Part shown: piece by piece, positions 15,279-53,796 of the stretch
Layout of the letters: the number at the start of each line of letters is the position of its first letter
Numbering within the stretch: position 1 is the first letter of the stretch
Assembly (NCBI GenBank): GCA_951406725.2
Contig: OX597827.1
Span: forward strand, 64,356,001 to 64,420,000
Source: Octopus vulgaris
Lineage: Eukaryota
DNA length: 64,000 nt
Direction of reading: 5' to 3'
The notes under the pieces: model-generated
The model's input: the letters and a program-made list of their open reading frames with translations, nothing else
The model's database searches: none
What the model was told of the DNA's origin: nothing
Position numbers and translations under genes: made by a program

Positions 15279-15380
15279 CGCTGTGAAGCTAAAACAATTA
15301 AACATGAATTATTTGCTATCGACATATATCGTCCCAGTACGCAGCTGGTGTGACGAAAAGTGGGTCTATTGCAGTGGTGT

Positions 15381-18300
15381 AAATGTTTGATGATAAATGT
15401 TTGATGAAAATGTTTGATGAAAATGTTTGATGAAAATGTTTGATGATAAATGTTTGATGAAAATGTTTGTTGATAAATGTTTGATGAAAATGTTTGATGA
15501 AAATGTTTGATGATAAACATTTGATGAAAATGTTTGATGAAAATGTTTGGTGAAAATGTTTAATGAAAACGTTTGATGATAAATGCTCGATGAAAAATGT
15601 GTGATAACAAATATTTGATGAAAATGTTTAATGATAAATGTTTGATGAAAATGTTTGATGAAAATGTTTGATGAAAATGTTTGATGATAAATGTTTGATG
15701 AAAATGTTTTAATAAATGTTTAATGAAAATGTTTGATGAATATGTTTGATGAAAATGTTTGATGATAAACATTTGATGAAAATGTTTGATGAAAATGTTT
15801 GGTGAAAATGTTTAATGAAAACGTTTGATGATAAATGTTCGATGAAAAATGTGTGATAACAAATATTTGATGAAAATGTTTATTGATAAATGTTTGATGA
15901 AAATGTTTGATGAAAAGTGTTTGATGATAAATGTTTGATGATAAATGACGATAAATGTTTGATGATAAATGTTTGATGATAAATGATTGATGAAAATGTT
16001 TGATGAAAATACTTGATTAAGATGTTTAATGAAAATGTTTGATGAAAATGTTTGAGTAAGATGTTTGAGGAAAATGTTTGATGAAAATGTTTGATTAAGA
16101 TGTTTGATGAAAATGTTTGATGTAAATGTTTGATGAAAATGTTTGATGAAAATGTTTGGTGAAAATGTTTAATGAAAACGTTTGATGAAAATGTTTGATG
16201 AAAATGTTTGATTAAGATGTTTGCTGAAAATGTTTAATGCAAATGTTTGATGAAAATGTTTGATGAAAATGTTTGATGAAAATGTTTGATGAAAATGTTT
16301 AATGAAAAATGTTTGATGATACATGTTTGATGATAAATGTTTGATGAAAATGTTTGATGAAAATGTTTGATGAAAGTGTTTGATGAAAATGTTTGATGAA
16401 AAATGTTTGATGATACATGTTTGATGATAAATGACGATAAATGTTTGATGATAAATGTTTGATGATAAATGATTGATGAAAAATGTTTGATGATACATGT
16501 TTGATGATACATGTTTGATGATAAATGTTTGATGAAAATGTTTGATGAAAATGTTTGATGATAAATGTTTGATGATAAATGTTTGTTGATAAATGTTTGT
16601 TGATAAACGTTTGATGAAAGTGTTTGATGATAAATCTTTGATGAAAGTGTTGTGATGAAAATGTTTGATAAAAATGTTTGATGATAAATGTTTGATGATT
16701 AATGTTTGATGAAAATGTTTGATGATAAATGTTTGATTAAAAAGTTTGAAGAACATGTTGGATGAAAATGTTTGATGAAAATGTTTGATGAAAATGTATG
16801 ATGAAAAATGTTTGATGATAAATGTTTGATGAAAAATATTTGATGATATATGTTTGATAAATGTTTGATGAAAATGTTTGATGATAATTGTTTAATGATA
16901 AATGTTTGATGAAAATATTTGATGAAAATGTTTGATGAAAAATGTTTGATGAAAATGTTTGATGAAAGTGTTTGGATGAAAATATATGGTGAAAATGTTT
17001 GATGAAAATGTTTGATTAAGATGTTTGATGAAAATGTTTGATGAAAATGCTTGATTAAGATGTTTGATGAAAATGTCTGATGAAAATGTTTGATGATAAA
17101 TGTTTCATGAAAATGTTTGATGATAAATGTTTAATGAAAATGTTTGTTGATAAATGTTTGATCATAAACGTTTGATGAAAATGTTTGGTGAAAATGTTTC
17201 ATGAAAACATTTGATGAAAATGTTTGATGAAAATGTTTGATTAAGATGTTTGCTGAAAATGTTTGATGTAAACGTTTGATAAAAATGTTTAATGAAAACG
17301 TTTGATGAAAATGTTTGATGAAAATGTTTGATTAAGATGTTTGCTGAAAATGTTTAATGTAAATGTTTGATGAAAATGTTTGATGAAAGTGTTTGATGAA
17401 AATGTCTGATGAAAAATGTTTGATGATAAATGTTTGATGATAAATGTATGATGAAAATGTTTCATGAAAAAAAATGTTTGATGATAAATGTTTGATGATA
17501 AATGTTTGTTGATAAATGTTTGTTGATAAACGTTTGATGAAAATGTTTGATGAAAGTGTTGTGATGAAAATGTTTGATAAAAATGTTTGATGATAAATGT
17601 TTGATGAAAATGTTTGATGATAAATGTTTCATGAAAATGTTTGATGAAAACGTTTGATGATAAACGTTTGATGAAAAAAGTTTGATGGAAATGTTTGGTG
17701 AAAATGTTTAATGAAAACCTTTGATGATAAATGTTTGATGAAAAATGTTTGATGATAAATGTTTGACGAAAATGTTTGTTGATAAATGTTTGATGATAAA
17801 TGTTTGATGATAAATGTTTGATTAAAACGTTTGATGAAAACGTTTGAGGTAAATATTTGATGAAAATATTTGGTGAAAATGTTTGATGAAAATGTATGAT
17901 GAAAATTGTTTGATGATAAATGTTTGATGAAAAATATTTCATGATAAATGTTTGATGATAAATGTTTGATGAAAATGTTTGATGATAATTGTTTAATAAT
18001 AAATGTTTGATGAAAATATTTGATGAAAATGTTTGATGAAAAATGTTTGATGTAAATGTTTGATGAAAGTGTTTGGATGAAAATATATGGTGAAAATGTT
18101 TGATGAAAATGTTTGATTAAGATGTTTGATGATATTGTTTGATGAAAATGTTTGATTAAGATGTTTCCTAAAAATGTTTGATGTAAATGTTTGATGAAAA
18201 GGTTTGATGAAAATGTTTGATGAAAATGTTTGATGAAAGTGTTTGATGAAAATGTTTCATGAAAATGTTTGATGAAAATGTTTGATGAAAGTGTTTGATG

Positions 18301-18417
18301 AAAATATTTGATGAAAAATGTTTGATGATACATGTTTGATGATAAATGTTTGATGAAAATGTTTGAAGAAAATGTCTGATGAAAAATGTTTGATGAAAGT
18401 GTTTGATGAAAGTGTTT
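15381..18417 (+). repeat. Satellite A main block, units TGATGAAAATGTT (13 bp) and TGATGATAAATGTT (14 bp)
   Basis: ~3 kb tandem array in one orientation, with internal duplications (e.g. 15500-15640 versus 15750-15890). Confidence 0.97.
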
Positions 18418-19430
18418 GAACTGGTTTGATCTGGTTTTATCCGGTTTGAACCAGTTTGAACTGGTTTGATCCGGTTTGAACTGGTTTGATCCGGCTTGAA
18501 CTGGTTTGATCCGGTCCAAACCGGACCAAACAAGTTCAAACTGGCTCAAACCGGTTCAACCCAGATCAAACCAGTTCAAACCAGATGAAACCGTTTTAAA
18601 CCGGTTCAAACCGGTTCATAACGGGTCAAACCAGTTCAAATCGGATCAATACGGTTCAAAACGTATCAAACCAGTTCAAACTAGATCAAACCGGTTCAAA
18701 CTGGTTCAAGCCGGTTCAAAACGGATCAAACCAGTTCAAACCAGATCAAACCGGTTCAAACCGAATCAAACCAGTTCAAACCAGATCAAACCGGTTCAAG
18801 CTGGTTCAAAACGGTTCAAACCGGTTCAAACCGGTTCAAAACAGATCAAACCAGTTAAAACCGTATCTAACCGGTTCAAAACGGATCAAACCAGTCCAAA
18901 CCGGATCAAATCGGTTCAAACCGGTTCAAACCGGATCAAGCCAAATTTCAGAATATTTAAAAATTTTATGAAAATTTTTCAAATATTTTATGAAAATTTT
19001 TGGTCAAAATTTTTTGAAAGTTTTGATCAAAGCGGTTTAAACCGGATCAAACCGGATGAAACTGGTTTGACCCTGTCTGGTTCGATCAGGTTTTGATCGG
19101 TCAGGTTCAAACCAGATCAAACCGGACCAAACAGGTGGAAACCGGATAAAACCGGTTCAACCCGGTTCAAAACAGATCAAACCAGTTCAAACCGGATCAA
19201 ACCGGTTCAAACCGTTTCGAAGCGGATCAAACCAGTTCAAATCGGTTCAAACTCGTTCAAACCGGATCAAACTGGTTTGAACTGGTTTGACCAATATTTC
19301 AGCCAAAATTTGACCAAACCGGCTTGACTGAAATTTTCAAAATATTTTCCAAAAAATTTTGACCAGTTTTAACCGGTTCGATCCGGTTTGAAGGTTCGAT
19401 CCGGTTTGAACCGGTTGCACCAAAAATTTT
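18418..19430. repeat. Satellite B, 10-bp unit AAACC(G/A)GTTC / AAACCGGATC
   Basis: Tandem 10-mers with orientation flips (e.g. ~18515), interrupted by AT-rich TGAAAATTTT-type stretches at ~18941-19030 and ~19290-19360. Confidence 0.95.
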
Positions 19431-19446
19431 TACAAGCGTTTTCAAA

Positions 19447-22400
19447 AAAATCCCCCTCTCAAATCCCCCTCTCTGGAATGTTCAACAATACTTCCTCCCC
19501 TTCCTCCTCTTCACCCCTCAAATCCCCACCTCTGGAATGTTCAACATTCCATCCTCCCTTTCCTCCCCTTCAGCCCTCAAACCCCCCTCTGTGGAATGTT
19601 CAACATTCCTTCCTCCCCTTCCTCCGCTTCACCTCTCAAATCCCACTCTCTGGAATGTTCAATATTCCTTCCTCCCCTTCCTCTACTTCACCCCTCATAT
19701 CACCCTCTCTGGAATGTTCAACATTCCTTCCTCCCCTTCATCTCTCAAATCCCCCTCTCTGGAATGTTCAATATTCCTTCCTCTCCTTCACCCCTGAAAT
19801 CCCCCTCTCTGGAATATTCAATGCGGTTCAAACCAGTTCAAACCGGATAAAACCGGTTCAAACCGGATCAAACCAGTTCAAACCGCATCAAACCGGTTCA
19901 AACCGGTTCAAACCGGATCAAACCTGTTCAAACCGGACCGAACTAGACAGGGTCAAACCAGTTTGATCCGGTTTGATCCGGTTTAAAACGGTTTCACCAA
20001 AACTGTTTCACCAAAATTGTTTGATGAAAATGTCTGATGAAAATGTTTGATGAAAATGCTTGATGAAAGTGTTTGATGATAAATGTTTTATGAAAATGTT
20101 TGATGTAAATGTTTGATGAAAATGTTTGATGAAAATGTTTCATGAAAAATGTTTTATGAAAATGTTTGATGATAAATGTTTGATGATAATTGTCTGATGA
20201 AAATGTTTGTCGATAAATGTTTGATGATAAAAGTTTGATGAAAATGTTTCACCTCTCAAATCCCCCTCTCTGGAATGTTCAATATCCTTTCCTCACATTC
20301 ACCTCTCAAATCCCCCTCTCTGATATGTTTAATTTTCGTTCCTCCCCTTCCACCGCTTCACCCCTCAAAACCCCCTCTCTGGAATGTTCAATATTCCTTC
20401 CTCCCCTTCCTCCCCTTCACCCCTCAAATCCCCCTCTCTGGAATGTTCAACATTCCTTCCTCCCCTTCCTCTTCTTCACCTCTCAAATCCACCTCTATGG
20501 AATGTTCAATATTCCTTCCTCCCCTTCACCCCTGAAATCCCCCTCTCTGGAATGTTAAAAATTTCCTTCCTCCCCTTCATCTCTCAAATCCCCCTCTCTG
20601 GAATGTTCAATATTCCTTCCTCTCCTTCACCCCTGAAATCCCCCTCTCTGGAATATTCAATGCGGTTCAAACCAGTTCAAACCGGATAAAACCAGTTCAA
20701 ACCGCATCAAACCGGTTCAAACCGGTTCAAACCGGATCAAACCTGTTCAAACCGGACCGAACTAGACAGGGTCAAACCAGTTTGATCCGGTTTGATCCGG
20801 TTTAAAACGGTTTCACCAAAACTGTTTCACCAAAATTGTTTGATGAAAATGTCTGATGAAAATGGTTGATGAAAGTGTTTGATGATAAATGTTTTATGAA
20901 AATGTTTGATGTAAATGTTTGATGAAAATGTTTGATGAAAATGTTTCATGAAAAATGTTTTATGAAAATGTTTGATGATAAATGTTTGATGATAATTGTC
21001 TGATGAAAATGTTTGTCGATAAATGTTTGATGATAAAAGTTTGATGAAAATGTTTCACCTCTCAAATCCCCCTCTCTGGAATGTTCAATATCCTTTCCTC
21101 ACATTCACCTCTCACATCCCCCTCTCTGATATGTTTAATTTTCGTTCCTCCCCTTCCACCGCTTCACCCCTCAAAACCCCCTCTCTGGAATGTTCAATAT
21201 TCCTTCCTCCCCTTCCTCCCCTTCACCCCTCAAATCCCCCTCTCTGGAATGTTCAACATTCCTTCCTCCCCTTCCTCTTCTTCACCTCTCAAATCCACCT
21301 CTATGGAATGTTCAATATTCCTTCCTCCCCTTCACCCCTGAAATCCCCCTCTCTGGAATGTTCAATATTCCTTCCTCCCTTTCACCCCTCAAATCCCCCT
21401 CACTGGAATGTTCAACATTCCTTCCTCCCCTTCACCCCTCAAATCCCCCTCTGTGGAATGTTCAACATTCCTTCCTTTCTTCCTCCCCATTACCTCTCAA
21501 ATCCCCCTTTCTGGATTGTTCAATATTCCTTCCTCCCCTTCCTCTCCTTCACCCCTCATATCCCCCCTCTGGAATGTTCAACATTCCCTCCTCCCCTTCC
21601 TCCCCTTCATTTGAAAAATCCCCCTCTCTGGAATGTTCAACATTCCTTTCTCCCCTTCCTCCACTTCACCCCTCAAATCCCCCCTCCGGAATGTTCAATA
21701 TTCCTTTCTCGCCATTCCTCCCCTTCACCTCTCAAATCCCCCTTTCTGGAATGTTCTACATACCTTCCTCCCCTTCCTCCCCTTCACTCCTCTAATCCCC
21801 CTCTCTGGAATGTTCGATACGAATCAAACCAGTTCAAACCGGACAAAACCGGTTCAAACAGGATCAAACCAGTTCAAACCGGTTCAAATTGGTTCAAACC
21901 GATTGAAACCGGATCAAATCTGTTCAAACCGGACCGAACCAGACAGGGTCAAACCAATTTGATCCGGTTTGATCCGGTTTAAACCGGTTTAACCAAAACT
22001 TTCAAAATTGTTTGATGAAAATGTCTGATGAAAATGTTTGATGAAATGTCTGATGAAAATGTTTGATGGAAATGTTTGATGAAAATGTTTGATGGAAATG
22101 TTTGATGAAAAATGTTTTATGTAAATGTATGATGATAACTGTTTCATGATAAATGTCTGATGAAAATGTTTGTTGATAAATGTTTCATGATAAACGTTTG
22201 ATGAAAATGTTTGTTGATAAATGTTTGAGGTAAATGTGTGATGAAAATGTTTGATGAAAATGTTTGATGAAAAATGTTTTATGAAAATGTGTGATGATAA
22301 ATGTTTCATGATAATTGTCAGATGAAAATGTTTGTTGATAAATGTTTGATGATAAACGTTTGATGAAAATGTTTTGTGACAATGTTTAATAAAAACTTTT

Positions 22401-22470
22401 GATGATAAATGTTTGATGACAATGAAAAGTGTTAGATGATAAATGTTTGATGATAAATGAGGATAAATCT
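19447..22470 (+). repeat. Three C-B-A satellite modules, including an ~806-bp tandem duplication
   Basis: C at 19447-19820, 20249-20659 and 21056-21815, each followed by B then A. The A-to-C junction ...GTCGATAAATGTTTGATGATAAAAGTTTGATGAAAATGTTTCACCTCTC is identical at ~20209 and ~21015. Confidence 0.93.
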
Positions 22471-25285
22471 TTGATCGGTCCAGTTCAAACCGGTTCAAAC
22501 CGGACCAAACCGGTACAAACCGAATAAAATCGGTTGAACGGGTAAAACCGGTTAAAACCAAGTCAAACCGTTTTAAACCGGTTCAAACCAAGTTCAAACC
22601 GGATCAAACCGTTTCAAACCGGTTCAGACCGGATCAAACCAGTTCAAACCGATTCAAACTGGTTCAAACTGGTTCAAAACGGTTCAAACCGGATCAAACC
22701 AGTTCAAACACTTTCATGAAACACTTTCATGAAAGATTTTTCATCAGACATTTTCATCAGATATTTTCATCAAACATTAAACCGGTTCAAACCGGCTCAA
22801 ACCAGATCAACCAGATCAGACAAGTTCAAACCGGGTCAAACTAATTCAAACCGGTTCAAACTGGTTCAAACCGGTACAAATCGAATAAAACCGGTTCAAA
22901 CCGGATCAAAATGTCTAATGAAAATGTTTGATGAAAAATGTTTGCTGAAAATGTTTGATGAAAAGGTCTAATGAAAAATGTTTGATGAAAGAGTTGGATG
23001 AAAGTGTTTGAACTTGTTTGATCTGGTTTGATCCGGTTTCAACCAGTTTGAACCAGTTTGAACCTGTTTGAACAAGTTTGAACCGGTTTGAACTGGTTTG
23101 ATCCGGTTCGAACCGGTTTGAACCAGTTTGAACTGGTTTGATCCGGGTCGAACCGGACCAAACCGGTATAAATCGAATAAAACCGGTTTAAACCAGATCA
23201 AAATGTCTGATGAAAATGTTTGATGAAAATGTTTGATGAAAATGTCTGATGAAAATGTCTGATGAAAATGTCTGATTAAAATGTCTGATGAATATGTCTG
23301 ATTAAAATGTCTGATGAAAAATGTTTGATGAAAATGTTTGATGAAAATGTCTAATGAAAAATGTTTGATGAAAGTGTTTGATGAAAGTGTTTGAACTTGT
23401 TTGATCTGGTTTGATCCTGTTTGAACCAGTTTGAACCGGTTTGAACCAGTTTGAACCAGTTTGAACCGCTTTGAACCAGTTTGAACTGATTTGACACGGT
23501 TTGATCTGGTTTGGACTGGTTTGATGCAGTTTGAACCGGTTTGAACCAGTTTGAAATGGTTTGAAACGGTTCAAACCGGACCAAACCGGTACAAATCGAA
23601 AAAACCCAGTTCAAACCGGATCAAAATGTCTGATGAAAATGCTTGATGAAAATGTCTGATGAAAATGTCTGATGAAAAATGATTGATGAAAAGGTTTGAT
23701 GAAAATGTCTCATTAAATATGTTTGATGAAAGTGTTTGAACTGGTTTGATCCTGTTTGATCAGGTTTGAACCGGTTTGAACCGGTTTGAACCAGTTTGAG
23801 CCGCTTTGAACCGGTTTGAACCAGCTTGAACCGGTTTGAACTGGTTTGATCCGGTTTGAACTAGTTTGATATGGTTTGATACGGTTTAAACCGGACCAAA
23901 CCGGTACAAATCGAAAAAAACCGGTTCACACCGGATAAAAATATCTGATGAAAATGTTTGATGAAAATGTTTGACGAAAATGCTTGATGAAAATGCTTGA
24001 TGAAAATGTTTGATGAAAATGTTTGATGAAAATGTTTGATGAAAATGTTTGATGAAAATGTCTGATGAAAGTCTTTGAACTGGTTTGATCTGGTTTGATC
24101 CTGTTTGAACCGGTTTGGACCGGTTTGAACCAGTTTGAACCAGTTTGAACTGATTTGACACGGTTTGATCTGGTTTGGACTGGTTTGATCCTGTTTGAAC
24201 CGGTTTGAACCAGTTTGAACAGGTTTGAAACGGTTCAAACCGGACCAAACCGGTACAAATCGAAAAAACCCAGTTCAAACCGGATCAAAATGTCTGATGA
24301 AAATGTTTGATGAAAATGTCTCATTAAAAATGTTTGATGAAAGTGTTTGAACTGGTTTGATCTTGTTTGATCAGGTTTGAACCGGTTTGAACCAGTTTGA
24401 GCCGGTTTGAACCGCTTTGAACCAGTTTGAACTGGTTTGATCCGGTTTGAACCAGTTTGAACTGGTTTGATACGGTTTAAACCGGACCAAACCGGTACAA
24501 ATCGAATAAAACCGGATCAAAATGTCTAATGAAAATGTTTGATGAAAATGTTTGTTGATAAATTTTTGATGATAAAAGTTTGATGAAAATGTTTGATGTA
24601 AATGTTTGGGGAAAATGTTTGAAGAAAGTGTTTGATGAAAGTGTTTGAACTGGTTTGAACTGGTTTGATCCGGTTTGAACAAGTTTGAACCGGTTTGAAC
24701 CAGTTTGAACCGGTTTGAACTGGTTTGTCCCGGTTTGAGCCGGTTTGAACTGGTTTGACCCGGTTTGAACTGGTTTGAACCAGTTTGAACTGGTTTGATA
24801 CGGTTCAAACCGGACCAAACCGGTACAAATGGAATAAAACAGGTTCAGACCGGATCAAAATGTCTGATGAAAATGTTTGATGAAAATGTTGGATGAAAAT
24901 GTTTGAGGAAAATGTTTGATGAATATGTCTGATGAAAATATTTGATGAAAAATGTTTGATGAAAATGTCTAATGAAAAATGTTTGATGAAAGTGTTTGAT
25001 GAAAGTTTTTGAACTGGTTTCATCCGGTTTAAACCGGTTTGAACCAGTTTGAACCAGTTTGAACCGTTTTGAATTGGTTAGATCCGGTTTGAACTTGTTT
25101 GATGTGGTTGATCCCGTTTGAGCCGGTTTGAACCGGTTTAATGTTTGATGAAAATGTCTGATTAAAATTTCTGATGAAAAATGTTTGATGAAATGTTTGA
25201 TGAAAGTGTTTGGACTGGTTTGATCCGGTTTGAACCGGTTTGAACAGTTTGAACCAGTTTAAACCGGTTTGAACTGGTTTGATCA
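22471..25285. repeat. Alternating A/B modules of ~300-400 bp joined by a conserved linker
   Basis: Linker AAACCGGACCAAACCGGTACAAATCGAA(T/A)AAAACC...GGATCAAAATGTCT recurs at ~22870, 23155, 23575, 23890, 24240, 24480 and 24810. Confidence 0.93.
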
Positions 25286-25294
25286 TGTCTGAAC

Positions 25295-28200
25295 TCTATG
25301 GAATGTTCAATATTCCTTCTTCCCATTCCTCCCCTTTACCTTCAAATACCCCTCTCTGGAATGTTAAATATTCCTTCTTCCCATTCCTCCCCTTCACCTT
25401 CAAATCCCCCTCTCTGAAATGTTCAATATTCCTTCTTCCCATTCCTCCCCTTTACCTTCAAATCCCCCTCTCAGGAATGTTCAATATTCCTTCTTCACAT
25501 TCCCCCCCTTTATCTTCAAATCCCCCTCTCTGGAATGTTCAATATTCCTTTTTCCCATTCCTCCCCTTGACCTTCAAATCCCCCTCGATGGAATGTTCAA
25601 TATTCCTTCTTCCCATTCCTCCCCTTCACCTTCAAATCCCCCTCTCTGGAATGTTCAATATTCCTTCTTCCCATTCCCCCCCTTTACCTTTAAATCGCCC
25701 TCTAAGGAATGTTCAATATTCCTTCTTCACATTCCACCCATTCACCTTTAAATCCCCCCCTCTGGAATGTTGAATATTCCTTCTTCCCATTCCTCCCCTT
25801 CACCTTCAAATCCAACTGTATGGAATGTTCAATATTCCTTCTTCCTATTCCTCCCCTTTACCTTTAAATCCCACACTCTGGAATGTTGAATACTCCTTCT
25901 TCCCATTCCTCCCCTTCACCTTCAAATCCCCCCCTCTGGAATGTTAAATATTCCTACTTCCCATTCCACCCATTCACCTTCAAATCCCCGTCTCTGGAAT
26001 GTTCAATATTCTTTCTTCCCATTCCACCCATCCATCTTCAAATCCCCCTCTCTGGAATGTTGAATATTCCTTTTTCCCATTCCCCCCCTTCACCTTCAAA
26101 TTCCCCCCTCTGGAATGTTGAATATTCCTTCTTCCCATTCCACCCATTCACCTTCAAATATCCCTCCCTGGAATGGTGAATATTCCTTCTTCCCATTCCT
26201 CCCCTTCACCTTCAAATCCCCCCTCTGGAATGTTGAATATTCCTTCTTCCCATTCCTCCCCTTTACCTTCAAATCCCCCTCTCTGGAATGTTCAATATTC
26301 CTTCTTCCCATTCCTCCCCTTCACCTTCAAATCCCCCCCCCTGGAATGTTGAATATTCCTTCTTCACATTCCTCCCCTTCACCTTCAAATCCCCCCTCTG
26401 GAATGTTGAATATTCCTTCTCCACATTCAACCCATTCACCTTCAAATCCCCCTCTCTGGAATGTTGAATATTCCTTCTTCCCATTCCTCCCCTTCACCTT
26501 CATATCCACCCCTCTGGAATGTTGAAAATTCCTTCTTACCATTCCTCCCCTTTACCTTCAAATCCCCCTCTCTGGAATGTCCAATATTACTTCTTCCCAT
26601 TCCACCCATTCACCTTCAAATCCCCCTCTCTGGAATGTTCAATATTGCTTCTTCCCATTCCTCCCATTCACCTTCAAATCCCCCCCTCTGGAATGTTGAA
26701 TATTCCTTCTTCCCATTCCTCCCCTTCACCTTCAAATCCCCCCTCTGGAATGTTCAATATTCCTTCTTCCCATTCCACCCATTCACCTTCAAATCCCCCT
26801 CTCTGGAATGTTCAATATTCCTTTTTCCCATTCCTCCCCTTCACCTTCAAATCTCCCTCTCTGGAATGTTGAATATTACTTCTTACCACTCCTCCCCTTC
26901 ACCTTCAAATCTCCCTCTCTGGAATGTTGAATATTACTTCTTACCACTCCTCCCATTCACCTTCAAATCCCCACCTCTGGAATGTTCAATATTCCTTCTT
27001 CACATTCCACCCATTCACCTTCAAATCCCCCTCTCTGGAATGTTCAATATTCCTTCTTTCCATTCCTCCCAATCACCTTCAAATCCCCCTCTCTGGAATG
27101 TTGAATATTCCTTCTTTCCATTCCTCCACTTCACCTTCAAATCCCCCTCTCTGGAATGTTGAATATTCCTTCTTCCCATTCCTCCCCTTCACCTTCAAAT
27201 CCCCCTCTCTGGAATGTTCAATATTCCTTCTTCCCATTCCTCCCCTTCACCTTCAAATCCCCCTCTCTGGAATGTTGAATATTCCTTCTTCCCATTCCTT
27301 ACCTTCACCTTCAAATCCCCCTCTCTGGAATGTTGAATATTCCTTCTTCCCATTCCTCCCCTTTACCTTCAAATCCCACTCTCTGGAATGTTCAATATGC
27401 CTTCTTCCCATTCCACCCATTCACCTTCAGATCCCCCTCTCTGCAATGTTAAATAGAGTGGGATTTGAAGGTGAAGCGGAGGAATGGGAAGAAGGAATAT
27501 TGAACATTCCAGAGAGGGAGATTTGGAGGTGAAGGGGAGGAATAGGAAGAAGGAATATTGAACATTCCATAGAGGGGGATTTGAAGGTGAAGGGGAGGAA
27601 TGGGGAGAAAGAATATTGAACATTCCAGAGAAGGGGATTTGAAGGTGAAGGGGAGGAATGGGAAGAAGGAATATTGAACATTCCAGAGAGGGGGATTTGA
27701 AGGTTAAGGGGAGGAAGGGGAAGAAGGAATATTGAACATTCCAGAAAGGGGGATTTGAAGGTAAAGGGGAAGAATGGGAAAAAGGAATATTGAACATACC
27801 AGAGAGGGGGATTTGAAGGTGATGGGGAGGAAGAGTAGGAAGGAATATTGAACATTCCAGAGAGGGGGATTTGAAGGTAAAGGGGAAGAATGGGAAAAAG
27901 GAATATTGAACATACCAGAGAGGGGGATTTGAAGGTGATGGGGAGGAAGAGTAGGAAGGAATATTGAACATTCCAGAGAGTGGGATTTGAAGGTGCAGGG
28001 GAGGAAGGAATATTGAACATTCCAGAGAGGGGGATTTGAAGGTGATGGGGAGGAAGGGTAGGAAGGAATATTGAATATTCTAGAGAGTGGGATTTGAAGG
28101 TGCAGGGGAGGAAGGAATATTGAACATTCCAGAGAGGGAGATTTGGAAGTGAAGGGGAGGAATGGGAAGAAGGAATATTGAACATTCCATAGAGGGGGAT

Positions 28201-28472
28201 TTGAAGATGAAGGGAGGAAGGAATATTGAACATTCCAGAGAAGGGGATTGGAAGGTGAGGAGGAGGAATTGGATGAAGGAATATTCAACATTCCAGTGAG
28301 TGGGATTTGAAGGTAAAAGGGTGGAATGGGAAGAAGGAATATTGAACATTCCAGAGAGGGGGATTTGAAGGTGAAGGGGAGGAAAGGGAGGAAGGCATAC
28401 TGAACATTCCAGAGAGGGGGATTTGAAGGTGAAATGGAGGTAGGGGAAGAAGGAATATTGAACATTCCAAAG
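25295..28472. repeat. Satellite C main block, 58-bp unit, with an internal inversion at ~27455
   Basis: Unit TGGAATGTTCAATATTCCTTCTTCCCATTCCTCCCCTTCACCTTCAAATCCCCCTCTC. Pyrimidine strand on + up to ~27455, purine strand on + thereafter. Confidence 0.97.
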
Positions 28473-28475
28473 AGG

Positions 28476-29290
28476 TATCTATAAATAGAAACTATAAATA
28501 GAATCTATAAGTAGAATCTGTAAATAGAATCTATAAATAGATTCCTTCCTCCACTTCCTCCCCCTTCCTCCCGGTTTGAACCGGTTTGAACCAGTTTGAA
28601 CCGGTTTGAACTGGTTTGACCCGGTTTGAACCGGTTTGAACCAGTTTGAACTGGTTTGATACGGTTTAAACCGGACCAAACCGGTACAAATCGAATAAAA
28701 CCGGTTCAAGCCGGATCAAAATGTCTGATGAAAATGTTAGATGAAAATGTTTGATGAAAGTGTTTGAACTGGTTTGAACTGTTTTGATCCTGTTTGAACC
28801 GGTTTGAACCGGTTTGAACCAGTTTGAACCGGTTTGAACCAGTTTGAACCGGTTCGAACTGGTAAGACCCGGTTTGAACCGGTTTGAACTGGTTTGACCC
28901 GGTTTGAACCGGTTTGAACCAGTTTGAACGGGTTTGATACTGTTCAAACTGGACAAAACCGGTACAAATCAAATCCGGTTGAGACCGGATCAAAATGTCT
29001 GATGAAAATGTTTGATGAAAATGTTTGATGAAAATGTTTGATGAAAATGTCTGATGAAAATGTCTGATGAAAAATGTTTGATGAAAATGTCTAATGAAAA
29101 ACGTTTGATGAAAGTGTTTGATGAAAGTGTGTGAACCGGTTTGATCCGGTTTAAACCGGTTTGAACCAGTTTGAACCAGTTTGAACCGTTTTGAATTGGT
29201 TAGATCCGGTTTGAACTTGTTTGATGTGGTTGATCCGGTTTGAGCCGGTTTGAACCGGTTTAATGTTTGATGAAAATGTCTGATGAAAAT
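28476..29290. repeat. Junction cassette: D, C fragment, B, A, B, A, B, A
   Basis: A closely related cassette recurs at 55406-55990 and, inverted, at 58776-59268. Confidence 0.9.
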
Positions 29291-32200
29291 TTATTTGTAG
29301 ATTCTATTTATAGATTCTATTTATATATTCTATTTATAGATTCTATTTATAGATACTATTTATAGATTCTATTTATAGATTCTATTTATAGATTCTATTT
29401 ATAGATTCTATTTATAGATTCTATTTATAGATTCTATTTATAGATTCTATTTATAGATTCTATTTATAGATACAATTTATTTACTTATTTATTTATTTAG
29501 AGATTCTATTAACAGATTCTATTTATAGATTCTATTAATAGATTCTATTAATAGATTCTATTTATAGATTCTATTTATAGATTCTATTAATAGATTCTAT
29601 TTATAGATTCTATTTATAGATTCTATATATAGATTCTATTTATAGATTCTATTTATTTATTTATTTATTTATTTATAGATTCTATTAACAGATACTATTT
29701 ATAGATTCTATTAATAGATTCTATTAATAGATTATATTTATAGATTCTATTTATAGATTCTATTTATAGATTCTTTTTATAAATTCTATTTATAGATTCT
29801 ATTCATTTATTTATTTATTTATTTATAGATTCTATTTATAGATTCTTTTTATAGATTCTATTTATAGATGCTATTTATAGATTCTATTTATAGATTCTAT
29901 TTATAGATTCTATTTATAGATTCTATTTATAGATTCTATTTATAGATACAATTTATTTACTTATTTATTTATTTATAGATTCTATTTATAGATTCTATTT
30001 ATAGATTCTATTAATAGATTCTATTAATAGATTCTATTAATAGATTCTATTTATAGATACTATTTATAGATTCTATTTATAGATTCTATTTATAGATTCT
30101 ATTAATAGATTCTATTAATAGATTCTATTTATAGATTCTATTTATAGATTCTATTTATAGATTCTATTAATAGATTCTATTTATAGATTCTATTTATTTA
30201 TTAATTTATTTTTTAATTTATAGATTCTATTTATAGATACTATTTATAGATTCTATTAATAGATTCTATTTATAGATTCTATTTATAGATTCTATTTATA
30301 GATACAATTTATTTACTTATTTATTTATTTATAGATTCTATTAATAGATTCTATTTATAGATTCTATTAATAGATTCTATTAATAGATTCTATTTATAGA
30401 TTCTATTTATAGATTCTATTAATAGATTCTATTTATAGATTCTATTTATAGATTCTATATATAGATTCTATTTATAGATTCTATTTATTTATTAATTTAT
30501 TTTTTTATTTATAGATTCTATTTATAGATTCTATTTATAGATTCAATTTATAGATTCTATTTATAGATTCTATTTATAGATTCTATTTACTTATTTATTT
30601 ATAGATTCTATTTATTAATAGATTCTATTAATAGATTCTATTTATAGATTCTATTTATAGATTCTATTAATAGATTCTATTTATAGATTCTATTTATAGA
30701 TTCTAATTATAGATTCTATTTATAGATTCTATTTATAGATTCTATTTATAGATTCTATTTATAGATTCTATTTATAGATTCTATTAATAGATTCTATTTA
30801 TAGATTCTATTTATAGATTCTATTTATAGATTCTATTTATAGATTCTATTAATAGATTCTATTTATAGATTCTATTTATATATTCTATATATAGATTCTA
30901 TTTATAGATTCTATTTATTTATTTATTTATTTATTTATAGATTCTATTTATAGATTCTCTTTATAGATTCTATTTATAGATTCTATTTATAGATTCTATT
31001 TATAGATTCTATTTATAAATACAATTTATTTACTTATTTATTTATTTATAGATTCTATTAACAGATTCTATTTATAGATTCTATTAATAGATTCTATTTA
31101 TTTATTTATTTATTTATAGATTCTATTTATAGATTCTATTTATAGATTCTATTTATAGATTCTATTTATAGATTCTATTTATAGATTCTATTTATTTATT
31201 TATTTATTTATAGATTCTATTTATAGATTCTATTTATAGATTCTATTTATAAATTCTATTTATAGATTCAATTTATAGATTCTATTTATAGATACTATTT
31301 ATAGATTCTATTAATAGATTCTATTTATAGATTCTTTTTATAGATTCTATTTATAGATACAATTTATTTAATTATTTATTTATTTATAGATTCTATTAAT
31401 AGATTCTATTTATAGATTCTATTAATAGATTCTATTAATAGATTCTATTTATAGATTCTATTTATAGATTCTATTTATTTATTTATTTATTCATAGATTC
31501 TATTTATAGATTCTATATATAGATTCTATTTATAGATTCTATTTATTTATTAATTAATTTATTTATTTATAGATTCTATTTATAGATTCTATTTATAGAT
31601 TCTATTTATAGATTCTATTTATAGATTCTATTTATAGATTCTATTTATAGATTCTATTTACTTATTTATTTATAGATTCTATTTATTAATAGATTCTATT
31701 AATAGATTCTATTTATAGATTCTATTTATAGATTCTATTAATAGATTCTATTTATAGATTCTATTTATAGATTCTATATATAGATTCTATTTATAGATTC
31801 TATTTATTTATTTATTTATTTATTTATTTATAGATTCTATTTATAGATTCTATTTATAGATTCTATTTATAGATTCTATTTATAGATTCTATTTATAGAT
31901 TCAATTTATAGATTCTTTTTATAGATTCAATTAATAGATTCTATTAATAGATTCTATTTATAGATTCTATTAATAGATTCTATTTATAGATTCTATTTAT
32001 AGATTCTATTTATACATTCTATTTATAGATTCTATTTAGTTATTTATTTCTGTATTTATTTATTTATTTATAGATTCTATTTATAGATTATATTTATAGA
32101 TTCTATTTATAGATTCTATTTATAGATTCTATTTATAGATTCTATTTATAGATACAATTTATTTACTTATTTATTTATTTATAGATTCTATTTATAGATT

Positions 32201-34870
32201 CTATTTATAGATTCTATTAATAGATTCTATTAATAGATTCTATTTATAGATTCTATTTATAGATTCTATTAATAGATTCTATTTATAGATTCTATTTATA
32301 GATTCTATATATAGATTCTATTTATAGATTCTATTTATTTATTTATTTATTTATTTATTTATAGATTCTATTTATAGATTCTATTTATAGATTCTATTTA
32401 TAGATTCTATTTATAGATTCTATTTATAGATACAATTTATTTACTTATTTATTTATTTATAGATTCTATTTATAGATTCTATTTATAGATTCTATTTATA
32501 GATTCTATTAATAGATTCTATTTATAGATTCTATTAATAGATTCTATTAATAGATTCTATTTATAGATTCTATTTATAGATTCTATATATAGATTCTATT
32601 TATAGATTCTATTTATTTATTTATTTATTTATAGACTCTATTTATAGATTCTATTTATAGATTCTATTTATAGATTCTATTTATAGATTCTATTTATAGA
32701 TTCTATTTATAAATACAATTTATTTACTTATTTATTTATTTATAGATTCTATTAACAGATTCTATTTATAGATTCTATTAATATATTCTATTTATTTATT
32801 TATTTATTTATAGATTCTATTTATAGATTCTATTTATAGATTCTATTTATAGATTCTATTTATAGATTCTATTTATAGATTCTATTTATAGATTCTATTT
32901 ATTTATTTATTTATTTATAGATTCTATTTATAGATTCTATTTATAGATTCTATTTATAGATTCAATTTATAGATTCTATTTATAGATACTATTTATAGAT
33001 TCTATTAATAGATTCTATTTATAGATTCTTTTATAGATTCTATTTATAGATACAATTTATTTAATTATTTATTTATTTATAGATTCTATTAATAGATTCT
33101 ATTTATAGATTCTATTAATAGATTCTATTAATAGATTCTATTTATAGATTCTATTTATAGATTCTATTTATTTATTTATTTATTCATAGATTCTATTTAT
33201 AGATTCTATATATAGATTCTATTTATAGATTCTATTCATTTATTAATTAATTTATTTATTTATAGATTCTATTTATAGATTCTATTTATAGATTCTATTT
33301 ATAGATTCTATTTACTTATTTTTTTATAGATTCTATTTATTAATAGATTCTATTAATAGATTCTATTTATAGATTCTATTTATAGATTCTATTAATAGAT
33401 TCTATTTATAGATTCTATTTATAGATTCTATATATAGATTCTATTTATAGATACTATTTATTTATTTATTTATTTATTTATTTATAGATTCCATTTATAG
33501 ATTCTATTTATAGATTCTATTTATAGATTCTATTTATAGATTCTATTTATAGATTCTTTTTATAGATTCTATTAATAGATTCTATTAATAGATTCTATTT
33601 ATAGATTCTATTTATAGATTCTATTAATAGATTCTATTTATAGATTCTATTTATATATTCTATATATAGATTCTATTTATAGATTCTATTTATTTTTATT
33701 TTTTTATTTATTTATAGATTCTATTTATAGATTCTATTTATAGATTCTATTTATAGATTCTATTTATAGATTCTATTTATAGATACAATTTATTTACTTA
33801 TTTATTTATTTATAGATTCTATTAACAGATTCTATTTATAGATTCTATTAATAGATTCTATTAATAGATTCTATTTATAGATTCTCTTTATAGATTCTAT
33901 TAATAGATTCTATTTATAGATTCTATTTATAGATTCTATTTATAGATTCTATTTATAGATTCAATTTATTTATTTATTTATTTATTTATTTATAGATTCT
34001 ATTTATAGATTCTATTCATAGATTCTATTTATAGATTCTATTTATAGATTCTATTTATAGATTCTATTTATAGATTCTATTTATAGATACAATTTATTTA
34101 CTTATTTTTTTATTTATAGATTCTATTTATAGATTCTATTTATAGATTCTATTAATAGATTCTATTTATAGATTCTATTAATAGATTCTTTTAATAGATT
34201 CTATTAATAGATTCTATTAATAGATTCTATTTATAGATTCTATTTATAGATTCTATATATAGATTATATTTATAAATTCTATTTATTTATTTAGTTATAT
34301 ATAGATTCTATTTATAGATTCTATTTATAGATTCTATTTATAGATTCTATTTATAGATTCTATTTATAGATTCTATTTATAGATATAAATAGTATCTATA
34401 AATAGAATCTATAAATAGAATCTATAAATAAAAATAAATAAATAAATAAATAAATAGTATCTATAAATAGAATCTATAAATAGAATCTATAAATAGAATC
34501 TATAAATAGAATCTATCGATAGAATCTATAAATAGAATCTATAAATAGAATCTATAAATAGAATCTATAAATAAATAAATAAATAAATAAATATTATCTA
34601 TAAATAGAATCTATTAATAGAATCTATAAATAGAATCTATAAATAAATAAATAAATAAATAAATAAATAGAATCTATAAATAGAATCTATAAATAGAATC
34701 TATAAATAGAATCTATAAATAAATAAAAAAATAAATAAATAGAATTTATAAATAGAATCTATAAATAGAATCTATAAAAAGAATCTATAAATAAATAAAT
34801 AAATAAATAGTATCTATAAATAGAATCTATAAATAGAATCTATAAATAGAATCTATATATAAATTAATAA

Positions 34871-34910
<40 letters not shown>

Positions 34911-35146
34911 AAAGAATCTATTAATAGGATCTATAAATAGAATCTATAAATAGAATCTATAAATAGAATCTATAAATAGAATCTATAAATCGAATCTATA
35001 AATAGAATCTATAAATAGTATCTATAAATAGAATCTATAAATAGAATCTATAAGTAGAATCTATAAATAAATAAATAAATAAATAAATAATTAGTATCTA
35101 TAAAAATAATCTATAAAGAGAATCTATAAATAGAATCTATAAATAG
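29291..35146. repeat. Satellite D, 13-bp unit GATTCTATTTATA with (TTTA)n interruptions
   Basis: Forward up to ~34383, then reverse complement (TATAAATAGAATC). Confidence 0.98.
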
Positions 35147-38122
35147 ATTATGTATATATATGCCAATTAGGTATATATATATGCAAATTATGTATATATA
35201 TGCAAATTATGTATATATATATATGCAAATTATGTATTTATTTTTGCAAATTATGTATATATATATGCAAATTATGTATATATATATGCAAATTATGTAC
35301 ATATATATGCAAATTATGTATATATATATATATATATATGCAAATTATGTATATATATATGCAAATTATCTATATATATAAATATGAAATTATGTATATA
35401 TATGCAAATTATGTATATATATGCAAATTATGTATATATATATGCAAATTATGTATATATATATATATATATGCAAATTATGTATATATATATGAAAATT
35501 ATGTATATATATGCAAATTATGTATAGATATATTTAAATTATGTATATATATATGCAAATTATGTATATATATACATAATTTGCATATATATACATAATT
35601 TGCATATATATGCAAATTATGTATATATTTATGCAAATTATGTATATATATATGGAAATTATGTATATATATATGGACATTATGTATATATATATGCAAA
35701 TTATGTATATATATATATATGCAAATTATGTATATATATATGCAAATTATGTATATATATATATGCAAATTATGTATATATATATGCAAATTATGTATAT
35801 AAATATTCAAATTATGTATATATATATATGAGAATTATGTATATATATATGCAAATTATGTATATATATATTCAAATTATGTTTATATGCAAATTATGTA
35901 TATATATATGCAAATTATATATATATATTCAAATTACGTATATATATATGCAAATTATGTATATATATGCAAATTATGTATATATATGATAATTATGTAT
36001 ATATATATGCAAATTATGTATATATATATATAGCAAATTATGTATATATATATATGCAAATTATGTATATATTATATGCAAATTATATATATATGCAAAT
36101 TATGTATATATATATGCAAATTATGTATATATATATGCAAATTATGTATATATATATATATATGCAAATTATGTATATATATATGAAAATTATGTATATA
36201 TATGCAAATTATGTATAGATATATTTAAATTATGTATATATATATGCAAATTATGTATATATATACATAATTTGTATATATATACATAATTTGCATATAT
36301 ATGCAAATTATGTATATATTTATGCAAATTATGTATATATATATGGAAATTATGTATATATATATATGGACATTATGTATATATATATGCAAATTATGTA
36401 TATATATATATATGCAAATTATGTATATATATATGCAAATTATGTATATATATATATGCAAATTATGTATATATATATGCAAATTATGTATATAAATATT
36501 CAAATTATGTATATATATATGAGAATTATGTATATATATATGCAAATTATGTATATATATATGCAAATTATGTTTATATGCAAATTATGTATATATATAT
36601 GCAAATTATATATATATATTCAAATTACGTATATATATATGCAAATTATGTATATATATGCAAATTATGTATATATATGCAAATTATGTATATATATATG
36701 CAAATTATGTATATATATGCAAATTATGTATATATATATATGCAAATTATGTATATATATATGCAAATTACGTATATATATGCAAATTATGTATATATAT
36801 GCAAATTATGTATATATATATATGCAAATTATGTATATATATATATATGCAAATTATGTATATATATATATGAAAATTATGTATATATATGCAAATTATG
36901 TATAAATATATGCAAATTATGTATATATATATGCAAATTATGTATATATATATGCAAATTATGTATATATATGCCAATTATGTATATATATATGCAAATT
37001 ATGTATATATATATGCAAATTATGTATATATATATGCAAATTATGTATTTATTTTTGCAAATTATGTATATATATATGCAAATTATGTTTATATATATGC
37101 AAATTATGTATATATATATGCAAATTATGTATACATATATATATGCAAATTATGTATATATATATATGCAAATTATCTATATATATATATGAAATTATGT
37201 ATATATATGCAAATTATGTATATATAGATATGCAAATTATGTATATATATATATGCAAATTATGTATATATATGCAAATTATGTATTTATTTTTGCAAAT
37301 TATGTATATATATATGCAAATTATGTTTATATATATGCAAATTATGTATATATATATGCAAATTATGTATATATATATGCAAATTATCTATATATATATA
37401 TGAAATTATGTATATATATGCAAATTATGTATATATATGCAAATTATGTATATATATATATGCAAATTATGTATATATATATGCAAATTATGTATATATA
37501 TATGAAAATTATGTATATATATGCAAATTATGTATAGATATATGCAAATTATGTATATATATATGCAAATTATGTATATATATATGCAAATTATGTATAT
37601 TTAGATATGCAAATTATGTATATATATATGCAAATTATATATATATATATGCCAATTATGTATATATATATGCAAATTATGTATATATATATGCAAATTA
37701 TGTATATATATATTGAAATTAAGTATATATATATGCAAATTATGTATATATATATGCAAATTATGTATATATATATGCAAATTATGTATATATATATATG
37801 CAAATTATGTATATATATATGCAAATTATGTATATATATATATATGCAAATTATGTATATATATATGCAAATTATGTATATATATATGCAAATTATGTAT
37901 ATATATATGCAAATTATGTATATATATATATGCAAATTATGTATATAAATATTCAAATTATGTATATATATGCAAATTATGTATATATATATGCAAATTA
38001 TGTATATATATATGCAAATTACGTATATATATGCAAATTATGTATATATATGCAAATTATGTATATATATGCAAATTATGTATATATATATATGCAAATT
38101 ATGTATATATATATGCAAATTA
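35147..38122 (+). repeat. Satellite E block 1, unit TATGCAAATTATG(TA)n
   Basis: ~20-26-bp units with variable TA tract. Short inverted patches at ~35572 and ~36264. Confidence 0.98.
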
Positions 38123-39637
38123 ATATATTCTATTTATAGATTCTATTTATAGATTCTATTAATAGATTCTATTTATAGATTCTATTTATAGATTCTATAT
38201 ATAGATTCTATTTATAGATTCTATTTATTTATTTATTTATTTATAGATTCTATATATAGATTCTATTTATAGATTCTATTTATAGATTCTATTTATAGAT
38301 TCTATTTATAGATTCTATTTATAGATTATATTAATAGATTATATTAATAGATTCTATTTATAGATTCTATTTATAGATTCTATTTATAGATTCTATTAAT
38401 AGATTCCATTTATAGATTCTATTTATATATTCTATATATAGATTCTATTTATAGATTCTATTCATTTATTTATTTATTTATTTATTTATAGATTCTATTT
38501 ATAGATTCTATTTATAGATTCTATTTATAGATTCTATTTATAGATTCTATTTATAGATTCTTTTTATAGATTCTATTAAAAGATTCTATTAATAGATTCT
38601 ATTTATAGATTCTATTTATAGATTCTATTAATAGATTCTATTTATAGATTCTATTTATATATTCTATATATAGATTCTATTTATAGATTCTATTTATTTA
38701 TTTATTTATTTATTTATTTATAGATTCTATTTATAGATTCTATTTATAGATTCTATTTATAGATTCTATTTATAGATTCTATTTATAGATTCTATTTATA
38801 GATACAATTTATTTACTTATTTATTAATTTATAGATTCTATTAACAGATTCTATTTATAGATTCTATCAATAGATTCTATTAATAGATTCTATTTATAGA
38901 TTCTATTTATAGATTCTATTAATAGATTCTATTCATAGATTCTATTTATAGATTCTATATATAGATTCTATTTATAGATTCTATTTATTTATTTATTTAT
39001 TTATTTATAGATTCTATTTATAGATTCTATTTATAGATTCTATTTATAGATTCTATTTATAGATTCTATTTATAGATACAATATATTTATTTTTTTTATT
39101 TATAGATTCTATTTATAGATTCTATTTATAGATTCTATAATTAGATTCTATTTATAGATTCTATTAATAGATTCTATTAATAGATTCTATTAATAGATTC
39201 TATTTCTAGATTCTATTTATAGATTCTATAAATGGATTATATTTATATATTCTATTTATTTATTTATTTATTTATAGATTCTATTTATAGATTCTATTTA
39301 TAGTTTCTATTTATAGATTCTATTTATAAATTCTATTTATATATTCTATTTATAGATTCTATTAGTATCTATAAATAGAATCTATAAATAGAATCTATAA
39401 ATAAATAATTAAATAAATAAATAAATAGTATCTATAAATAGAATCTATAAATAGAATCTATAAATAGAATCTATAAATAAATAAATAAATAAATAAATAA
39501 ATAGAATCTATAAATAGTATCTATAAATAGAATCTATAAATAGAATCTATAAATAAATAAATAAATAAAGAGTATCTATAAATAGAATCTATAAATAGAA
39601 TCTATAAATAGAATCTATATATAAATAAATAAATGAA

Positions 39638-39668
<31 letters not shown>

Positions 39669-39905
39669 ATAGATTCTATTAATAGGATCTATAAATAGAA
39701 TCTATAAAAAGAATCTATAAATAGAATCTATAAATAGAATCTATAAATCGAATCTATAAATAGAATCTATAAATAGTATCTATAAATAGAATCTATAAAT
39801 AGAATCTATAAGTAGAATCTATAAATAAATAAATAAATAAATAAATAATTAGTATCTATAAATAGAATCTATAAAGAGAATCTATAAATAGAATCTATAA
39901 ATAGA
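38123..39905. repeat. Satellite D, forward then reverse (switch ~39363)
   Basis: Read directly. Confidence 0.97.
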
Positions 39906-42811: not shown

Positions 42812-44736
42812 ATATATTCTATTTATAGATTCTATTTATAGATTCTATTAATAGATTCTATTTATAGATTCTATTTATAGATTCTATATATAGATTCTAT
42901 TTATAGATTCTATTTATTTATTTATTTATTTATAGATTCTATATATAGATTCTATTTATAGATTCTATTTATAGATTCTATTTATAGATTCTATTTATAG
43001 ATTCTATTTATAGATTCTATTAATAGATTCTATTAATAGATTCTATTTATAGATTCTATTTATAGATTCTATTTATAGATTCTATTAATAGATTCCATTT
43101 ATAGATTCTATTTATATATTCTATATATAGATTCTATTTATAGATTCTATTCATTTATTTATTTATTTATTTATAGATTCTATTTATAGATTCTATTTAT
43201 AGATTCTATTTATAGATTCTATTTATAGATTCTATTTATAGATTCTATTTATAGATTCTTTTTATAGATTCTATTAATAGATTCTATTAATAGATTCTAT
43301 TTATAGATTCTATTTATAGATTCTATTAATAGATTCTATTTATAGATTCTATTTATATATTCTATATATAGATTCTATTTATAGATTCTATTTATTTATT
43401 TATTTATTTATTTATTTATAGATTCTATTTATAGATTCTATTTATAGATTCTATTTATAGATTCTATTTATAGATTCTATTTATAGATTCTATTTATAGA
43501 TAAAATATTTATATTTACTTATTTATTAATTTATAGATTCTATTAACAGATTCTATTTATAGATTCTATTAATAGATTCTATTAATAGATTCTATTTATA
43601 GATTCTATTTATAGATTCTATTAATAGATTCTATTCATAGATTCTATTTATAGATTCTATATATAGATTCTATTTATAGATTCTATTTATTTATTTATTT
43701 ATTTATTTATAGATTCTATTTATAGATTCTATTTATAGATTCTATTTATAGATTCTATTTATAGATTCTATTTATAGATACAATATATTTATTTTTTTTT
43801 ATTTATAGATTCTATTTATAGATTCTATTTATAGATTCTATTAATAGATTCTATTTATAGATTCTATTAATAGATTCTATTAATAGATTCTATTAATAGA
43901 TTCTATTTCTAGATTCTATTTATAGATTCTATATATGGATTATATTTATAGATTCTATTTATTTATTTATTTATTTATAGATTCTATTTATAGATTCTAT
44001 TTATAGTTTCTATTTATAGATTCTATTTATAAATTCTATTTATATATTCTATTTATAGATTCTATTAGTATCTATAAATAGAATCTATAAATAGAATCTA
44101 TAAATAAATAATTAAATAAATAAATAAATAGTATCTATAAATAGAATCTATAAATAGAATCTATAAATAGAATCTATAAATAGAATCTATACATAGAATC
44201 TATAAATAGAATCTATAAATAGAATCTATAACTAGAATCTATAAATAAATAAATAAATAAATAGTATCTATAAATAGAATCTATGAATAGAATCTATAAA
44301 TAGAATCTATAAATAAATAAATAAATAAATAAATAAATTGAATCTATAAATAGTATCGATAAATAGAATCTATAAATAGAATCTATAAATAAATAAATAA
44401 ATAAATAGTATCTATAAATAGAATCTATAAATAGAATCTATAAATAGAATCTATATATAAATAAATAAATGAATAAATAAATAAATAAATAAATAAATAA
44501 ATAGATTCTATTAATAGGATCTATAAATAGAATCTATAAATAGAATCTATAAATAGAATCTATAAATAGAATCTATAAATCGAATCTATAAATAGAATCT
44601 ATAAATAGTATCTATAAATAGAATCTATAAATAGAATCTATAAGTAGAATCTATAAATAAATAAATAAATAAATAAATAATTAGTATCTATAAATAGAAT
44701 CTATAAAGAGAATCTATAAATAGAATCTATAAATAG
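42812..44736. repeat. Satellite D, forward then reverse (switch ~44066)
   Basis: Near copy of 38123-39905, sharing rare variants (GATTCCATT, ATTTCTAG, TGGATTAT, TAGTTTCT). Confidence 0.97.

Positions 44737-51553: not shown

Positions 51554-51588
<35 letters not shown>

Positions 51589-52285: not shown

Positions 52286-52328
<43 letters not shown>

Positions 52329-53761: not shown

Positions 53762-53796
<35 letters not shown>

Follow-up and report, generated by a model that had tools for sequence, protein, structure and literature searches.

The window considered here is a stretch of 64,000 nucleotides of the Octopus vulgaris genome (assembly GCA_951406725.2, contig OX597827.1, here called C14, positions 64,356,001 to 64,420,000 of the forward strand). 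From position 15,381 to its end the window is a satellite array of five interleaved units, termed A13, B10, C59, D13 and E21 (Table 1). The unit of primary concern, B10 or satellite B, is a 10-bp repeat present on both strands in blocks within 18,414-25,295, and it recurs near 28.6, 55.4 and 58.5 kb. Judged from motif matches, B is part of a family of unrelated units, most of which appear to be optimal transcription factor sites with the right spacing, and which are joined to each other and dispersed together; this family is the notable result of the analysis.

Composition of the array on contig C14

A preliminary description had treated the interval 18,418-25,285 as an array of satellite B. 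Its 10-bp unit and the 10-bp period stand, and the unit lies on both strands, but the interval is no pure B array: of the 6,868 bases, B accounts for about 2,800, and between its blocks lie those of a 13-bp unit (about 1,700 bases) and a 58/59-bp unit (about 1,500 bases). Throughout the window array, units of the same type change strand 27 times.

Table 1. Features of the composite array, in window coordinates (empty strand cell: none given)
Feature	Position	Strand
Composite satellite array, continuing to ~56 kb beyond the window (C14 ~64,371,400-64,476,400; ~105 kb in total)	15381..64000	
Left junction: abrupt array start after a fragment resembling the SINE-like (short interspersed nuclear element-like) dispersed repeat of 5400-6010; terminus shared with no other array	15300..15381	+
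A13 array (13/14-bp unit; 3/10 mismatches to Atf4); shorter blocks up to 25212	15381..18419	+
B10 blocks (CP2/LSF-type match, 10-bp period) interleaved with A13 and C59	18414..25295	both orientations
AT-rich linker like the Kat repeat of other array ends (by eye)	18940..19024	
Three short C59 blocks (58/59-bp unit, perfect TEAD motif match)	19458..21815	+
C59 array, strand flip at 27455	25294..28475	
Further B10 blocks with A13	28571..29261	
D13 array (13-bp unit, MEF2 match, 9/10 to Mef2a), many strand flips	29292..63992	
Three E21 blocks (~21-bp unit, perfect Oct2 octamer match) inside the D13 array	35153..48393	+
B10/A13 blocks within the D13 array	55437..56283	-
B10/A13 blocks, inverted counterpart of 55437-56283 (large inverted duplication)	58482..59267	+

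Outside the array, a nearly pure tetranucleotide microsatellite of 1.3 kb lies at 10,861-12,180, 3 kb upstream. Two inverted-repeat elements at about 180-470 and 690-1,200 resemble miniature inverted-repeat transposable elements (MITEs) by eye.

Satellite B as a match to the CP2-type site

Multiple features connect B with the CP2 family. The B dimer has 0 mismatches in 20 positions to the HOMER consensus for Tcfcp2l1, and B forms a direct repeat of CNRG-N5/6-CNRG with a 10-bp period. In the available text of PMC9223585 and PMC5829564, CNRG-N5/6-CNRG is the site that CP2 binds as a tetramer; the former also describes synergistic binding on 3-4 consecutive half-sites, and the latter gives the outer C and G as the bases that GRHL1 needs most. 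The HOMER double motif for GRHL2 reads as a 9-bp period, versus 10 bp in B. A host exon at 34.45 Mb of C4 finds its best match in TFCP2 (E = 2.5e-32), compared with 7e-12 for GRHL2, in a comparison of one exon and not of a full gene. The host family search, whose yield is a lower bound, returned no Grainyhead-type exon; one or more TEA-domain exons are present in the host genome. Because the dimer lacks mismatches to Tcfcp2l1, the GRHL2 period is 9 bp and the host exon is nearest to TFCP2, the B motif is best classed as CP2-type rather than Grainyhead-type. Thus, of the two matrix families proposed for comparison in the preliminary description, TFCP2L1 and GRHL, the HOMER comparison favors the first, and the CP2 identity of the motif is upheld.

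The variants of B are a different matter. Among 181 units sampled inside arrays (a sampling that favors alternating units), CNRG is kept in 136, of which 70 have an intact CpG core, 29 carry G>A and 27 carry C>T; in the other 45 CNRG is broken. The claim that the common variants remain inside the consensus is therefore correct for G>A and C>T, but it overlooked both these 45 units and the commonest variant, a T>A change directly after CNRG (38% of the 181). This change spares CNRG but disrupts the Grainyhead 8-mer; the B consensus contains that 8-mer without a mismatch, whereas only 29 of the 181 units do. As the preliminary description had observed, B is rich in CpG amid CpG-poor satellite, with 52.7 CpG per kb in B blocks versus 0.6-4.7 in four other repeat types. 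Its alternative account of CCAG and CTGG, deamination of the CpG, fits the counts: transitions at the CpG are symmetric, with rates of 0.19 and 0.22, as decay predicts, and about three times as frequent as those at the outer bases (0.066 for the C and for the G). These outer bases differ from the consensus in 13% (C) and 12% (G) of the 181 units, versus 10% for the spacer C and 1-3% for the three A's. At other loci the CpG transitions of B are mostly lower (0-0.19) than in the 105-kb window array, indicating that B decay is array-specific. Flank CpG values are 0.84-1.11 at 10 of 12 flanks and 0.32 and 0.52 at the other two; since they are mostly undepleted and do not correlate with B decay, methylation is not established.

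The 10-bp period itself is strict. It accounts for 307 of 336 CNRG-to-CNRG steps within 18,414-25,295 (steps of 5-16 bp) and for 685 of 689 B core steps over all loci. However, the units D13 (1088/1096), G9 (264/265) and H13 (424/429) are phased as strictly, which rules out the phasing as a constraint specific to B. Likewise, the symmetric CpG transitions and the unprotected contact bases rule out the B variants as a sign of selection. They are what decay would give, and nothing in B alone shows constraint. The outcome that the preliminary description had set against itself, variants fully explained by CpG decay and a spacing free of constraint, is thus half realized at the level of copies. 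The earlier work named the right factor family, but for reasons that failed on testing; support comes instead from the finding that other units of the family also match factor sites.

A dispersed family of joined units

The genome searched comprises 2.8 Gb in 227 contigs. An exact 27-bp B pattern has 184 matches, a lower bound, compared with 0 for a reversed-pattern control, which puts B well above chance, and patterns for two other units have at least 83 and at least 100 matches; the first 100 of the 184 B matches were listed, and all genome-wide counts are lower bounds. Sixty stretches of 10 kb taken around matches of three unit patterns were stitched into 33 groups on 12 contigs. In these stretches, further units are joined to B, C or D: F22, G9, H13, K52, Kat (AT-rich and K-like), M26/27 and P20. 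Six of them (F22, G9, H13, K52, M27 and P20) were found after the idea of factor sites had arisen from the window units, the other loci thus serving as a forward test. K52 is known from one array on C2, and an exact 39-bp K52 pattern has no genome-wide match.

The arrays range from 0.1 to about 105 kb, lie on at least 12 contigs, and consist of units joined directly to each other. Among the 33 groups, B contacts F in 13, F contacts G in 11, and B contacts G in 8, and direct contacts link all types into one network; E21 blocks below about 270 bp, which are likely TA microsatellites, were ignored in this map. B/F junctions are same-strand in 82 of 84 cases (22 groups), and the units follow a cyclic order, with 53 junctions of B>F, 25 of F>G and 22 of G>B. 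In a second arrangement, G is inverted relative to F (25 junctions). The fixed polarity and cyclic order indicate that the CP2, TCF and TEAD units spread as a composite. Unit content and order vary between loci.

No shared termini and no target-site duplication were found at 24 arrays, whose 400-bp flanks share just common host repeats. The longest direct repeat between flanks is 3-7 bp in 22 of the 24, and 11-12 bp in the two whose bounds still held repeat. A transposon carrier was rejected for this lack of shared flanks or duplications at the 24 arrays. In their dispersed short arrays and frequent inversions, the octopus arrays resemble the minisatellites of Helitrons, MITEs and foldback elements described in the available text of PMC12692304; unlike those, they have no shared termini or target-site duplication at the 24 arrays compared. 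In one case (L029:3997-7449) the array is centered between two inverted copies of one unique flank, which agree at 93% over 400 bp. About 10 arrays lie within 16 Mb of C13 (55.6-71.4 Mb), suggesting local hopping; this uneven spread argues against a centromeric satellite, with the proviso that the searches list part of the matches.

The family is also found in other data. The interval 18,418-25,285 was detected in runs of organism A from two studies, with shares of 0.47, 0.30 and 0.27 (the run with the highest share may itself be the source). Four runs labelled as four organisms from four studies, which contain 364, 380, 215 and 397 B-type contigs, were compared with a 92-bp B array that has unique flanks. 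Each run has one contig in which B passes into that same flank, and in two of them loose ends run into F22-like sequence. The same junction in four labelled organisms indicates that the family is no assembly artefact and is older than the split of these lineages. No empty site was seen at this array, the left flank being covered in one run of the four. As for expression, no RNA run is listed among those containing the interval; there are 36 B-type contigs in one run guessed to be RNA but possibly DNA, 1 in another, and 0 in two.

Several neighbors and possible relatives were noted. Kat tends toward array ends (L037:2931-3595 and 6806-6908; L032:6313-6410; L017 at about 4750-4890). A SINE-like element interrupts an H13 array (L054:3950-4340), which is therefore older than the insertion. 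An 86-bp minisatellite (L025:3673-3983; L076-L089) has 261 matches at dozens of loci, with about 72-100% identity among the matches listed, and no shared flanks at 14 loci; it adjoins one family array. A 34-bp unit with Onecut/Cux-like and antioxidant-response-like words, by eye, forms an 11-kb array about 100 kb from the end of contig C2 (L054:5605-10000 and L068:1-6945); being 870 bp from an H13 array and not joined to it, it was left out of the family. At L021:4980-6976, inverted B blocks and Kat alternate with a 32-bp repeat that may belong to the family. About 9 kb from the array at 20.8 Mb of C11 there is an open frame of 349 amino acids, BTB-like by eye (L060:1851-2897, minus strand). 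Contig C14 carries protocadherin clusters at 1-15 Mb and 79-83 Mb, with dozens of long single-frame matches; a link to them was rejected, as the nearest listed protocadherin gene on C14 is about 15 Mb from the array.

Motif matches and their conservation

Units were scored against the consensus strings of a HOMER table (Table S10, supplement of PMC10572670), approximately rows 32-440. Perfect matches were obtained for C59 and G9 with TEAD (0/10 mismatches each), P20 with Mef2a (0/10), E21 with the Oct2 octamer (0/10), K52 with STAT4 (0/12; NF-kB, 1/10) and M27 with Cux2 (0/10, a low-information motif). D13 differs from Mef2a at 1/10 positions, and F22 combines an HMG site (LEF1, 1/10) with a worm-type Helper (0/7). 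A13 (3/10 off Atf4) and H13 (2/8 off an NF1 half-site) have no clean match, though a forkhead fit for either could be missed, because the first rows of the table, which probably hold most forkhead motifs, were left out. Vertebrate factor specificities are taken here to carry over to a mollusc. Taken together, about ten unrelated units make up the family, and most appear to match known factor sites (CP2, TEAD, TCF, MEF2, POU and STAT).

Two units reproduce the arrangement of a known site as well as its sequence. F22 has its Helper behind the HMG site at a distance of 5 bp, or of 6 bp in a subtype of 23 bp. The orientation is that of the synthetic Wnt reporter POPHHOP, whose six HMG-Helper pairs have 6-bp spacing (PMC3916239, available text). 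G9 has a 9-bp period, equal to that of the TEAD double motif, for which the available text of PMC12008814 reports cooperative binding and a predicted decrease in binding upon a 1-bp deletion; the single polymorphic position of G9 (53%) is a free one in both motif descriptions. Thus, F22 and G9 agree with these systems in site, orientation and period, and differ from synthetic reporters in being natural, diverged, placed among host repeats at many loci and present in several organisms.

In two units, the presumed binding cores are better kept than the remainder, by a factor of 3-4. Gapped alignments, which were made for C59 and F22 and give each stretch equal weight, yield a deviation of 0.023 in the C59 TEAD core versus 0.090 elsewhere (18 stretches, about 1,390 units, p=0.0001) and of 0.066 in the F22 HMG and Helper cores versus 0.206 (26 stretches, about 2,870 units, p=0.002). 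In both units the difference holds within C/G and within A/T positions. The other units are covered by ungapped profiles, from which E and P were set aside, since D13 copies had been matched to them. In such profiles, the CpG of the F22 Helper has hardly decayed (0.04, 0.05), and D13 most often changes by an A/T exchange at the center of its MEF2 match.

Explanations for the spread of the family

The preferred reading, which we hold tentatively at somewhat less than even chances, sees in B a component of a dispersed mosaic satellite in whose spread factor-binding templates were likely favored, the inserted copies then decaying. Bare arrays can be copied into breaks while templates switch, or can be amplified as circles that reinsert; both mechanisms are established, and the inverted duplication of flank, the strand flips and the absence of shared ends are the traces expected of them. 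Host orthologues would bind the unit sites, and a bound array would be kept open and accessible. Open arrays would more often be donors for rolling-circle or template-switching copying into breaks, so that selection would act on donor templates, and each inserted copy would expand by slippage and then decay. Template switching during copying could also account for the chimeric junctions. A stronger version, rated as rather doubtful, holds that the family is a selfish, terminus-less mobile array that would recruit optimal, correctly spaced sites for Wnt, Hippo, JAK/STAT, MEF2, POU and CP2 factors and would spread via the open chromatin they make.

A number of observations weigh against the preferred reading. 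Neither a donor element nor a circle nor a polymorphic insertion was seen. The contact bases of B, its outer C and G, show no constraint among copies, and the cores of K52 and M27 are kept no better than their flanks (ungapped profiles). Two abundant units, A13 and H13, are those without a clean match, and C59 and G9, like D13 and P20, are not independent of each other. In C59, a second, inverted TEAD half-site is broken by a variant present at 37-43%, and the core varies no less than an A/T stretch that lies outside it. F22 has just 6 non-core positions, and linkers are C-runs that may mutate faster. Since unit copies and loci are related, the p-values given above are optimistic. Finally, the single-motif probability of the perfect high-information matches on random sequence is 0.00015-0.0005, but correction for the roughly 430 library motifs raises it to 0.06-0.21 for B, G9, P20, E21, C59 and K52 and to 1 for the rest, so that no unit is significant alone.

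This last point also serves an explanation by chance, which we consider unlikely: units born of slippage, palindromes that amplify and invert easily, and hundreds of motifs available to match, with the B variants as CpG and GC-to-AT decay. The cores of B, D/P, K and C are indeed palindromic or nearly so, another point against the preferred reading in that it raises chance matches to motifs of dimeric factors; no match exists for two of the nine lineages, the decay of B looks neutral, and the 32-bp and 34-bp repeats, of uncertain relation to the family, also contain 9/10 or low-information matches by eye. Chance accounts less readily for the lineages taken together. Of the nine counted (B, C/G, D/P, E, F, K/Kat, M, A and H), six have either a mismatch-free fit to a high-information motif or the two-part TCF site, for which a rough binomial by hand at 0.15 per lineage gives about 0.001; in this estimate the redundancy of the library is conservative, the matching of palindromic units to dimer motifs is anti-conservative, and control repeats are outside the comparison. 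In addition, the TCF, TEAD-double and octamer sites are non-palindromic, the periods equal cooperative spacings (10 for CP2, 9 for TEAD), and the cores of C59 and F22 are conserved.

A further explanation, with a similarly small probability in our estimate, is that the units were cut from an ancestral enhancer of a mobile element, virus or host gene and amplified regardless of binding. Satellites often derive from transposon parts, and dispersed arrays are known (PMC12692304, available text). A single ancestral module is suggested by the fixed polarity and the cyclic order B>F>G. The 86-bp minisatellite has two words in common with family units, an octamer-like one of 11 bp with E21 (p=0.005) and an AT-rich one of 13 bp with Kat (p=0.002). 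No significant word links it to B, F, G, C, D, H, K or M, however, and no parent element was found among the flanks and open reading frames of the family arrays, where frames of at least 150 amino acids are, by eye only, retrotransposon-like fragments or low-complexity frames. Neutral amplification also would not leave cores better kept than linkers at many amplified loci.

Least probable, and quite improbable in our judgment, is that the arrays were selected by the host, as hubs of enhancers or as sinks for pathways such as Hippo, Wnt and JAK/STAT: human Satellite 3 (HSat3) has been proposed as such a platform, multimerised HMG sites suffice for a Wnt response in reporters (PMC3916239, available text), and one short B array is kept at the same flank in four labelled organisms, but copies decay with the CP2 contact bases unprotected, unit content and order differ between loci, the frames in the flanks are, by eye, mostly retrotransposon-like and the nearest listed protocadherin is distant.

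HSat3 is the closest known case. According to the available text of PMC11526998, it binds TEAD, recruits YAP and is proposed as a platform for transcription factors; other factor-bound satellites in that text are those of mouse with Pax/Foxd3/YY1 and of human with HSF1, DUX4, Ikaros and EWS-FLI1. HSat3 and the octopus family are both tandem arrays with many motifs of signalling effectors, TEAD among them, although in the octopus these are motifs only. HSat3 derives from a pentamer and is a single family, forming pericentromeric arrays of megabase size, with several motifs from one repeat and with binding shown, whereas the octopus family, read from its sequence, has about ten unrelated units, each with its own factor match and spacing, dispersed as arrays of which the longest seen reaches about 105 kb (the assembly may collapse arrays). 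The remaining factor-bound satellites share with it the recognition of motifs on repeated DNA. To our knowledge, each of them pairs one repeat with one or few factors, and none is a mosaic of unrelated site units. Searches of the literature for satellites of cephalopods or molluscs that carry factor sites showed no description of the family; they did not extend to repeat databases, subscription papers or bioRxiv supplements.

It is an open question why some short sequences and not others become satellites, and the usual answer is drift and slippage. If the preferred reading is correct, the family would provide direct evidence for selection of satellite sequence by protein binding, and the presence of bound and unbound units in the same arrays would provide a clean test; the unmatched units A13 and H13 would then predict unknown host binders. 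If the stronger, selfish version holds, the arrays would be natural multi-pathway reporter constructs and potential signal-responsive enhancers or sinks. In a cephalopod lineage with heavy genome rearrangement, thousands of strong Wnt, Hippo and STAT motif matches in dispersed blocks could rewire or titrate signalling.

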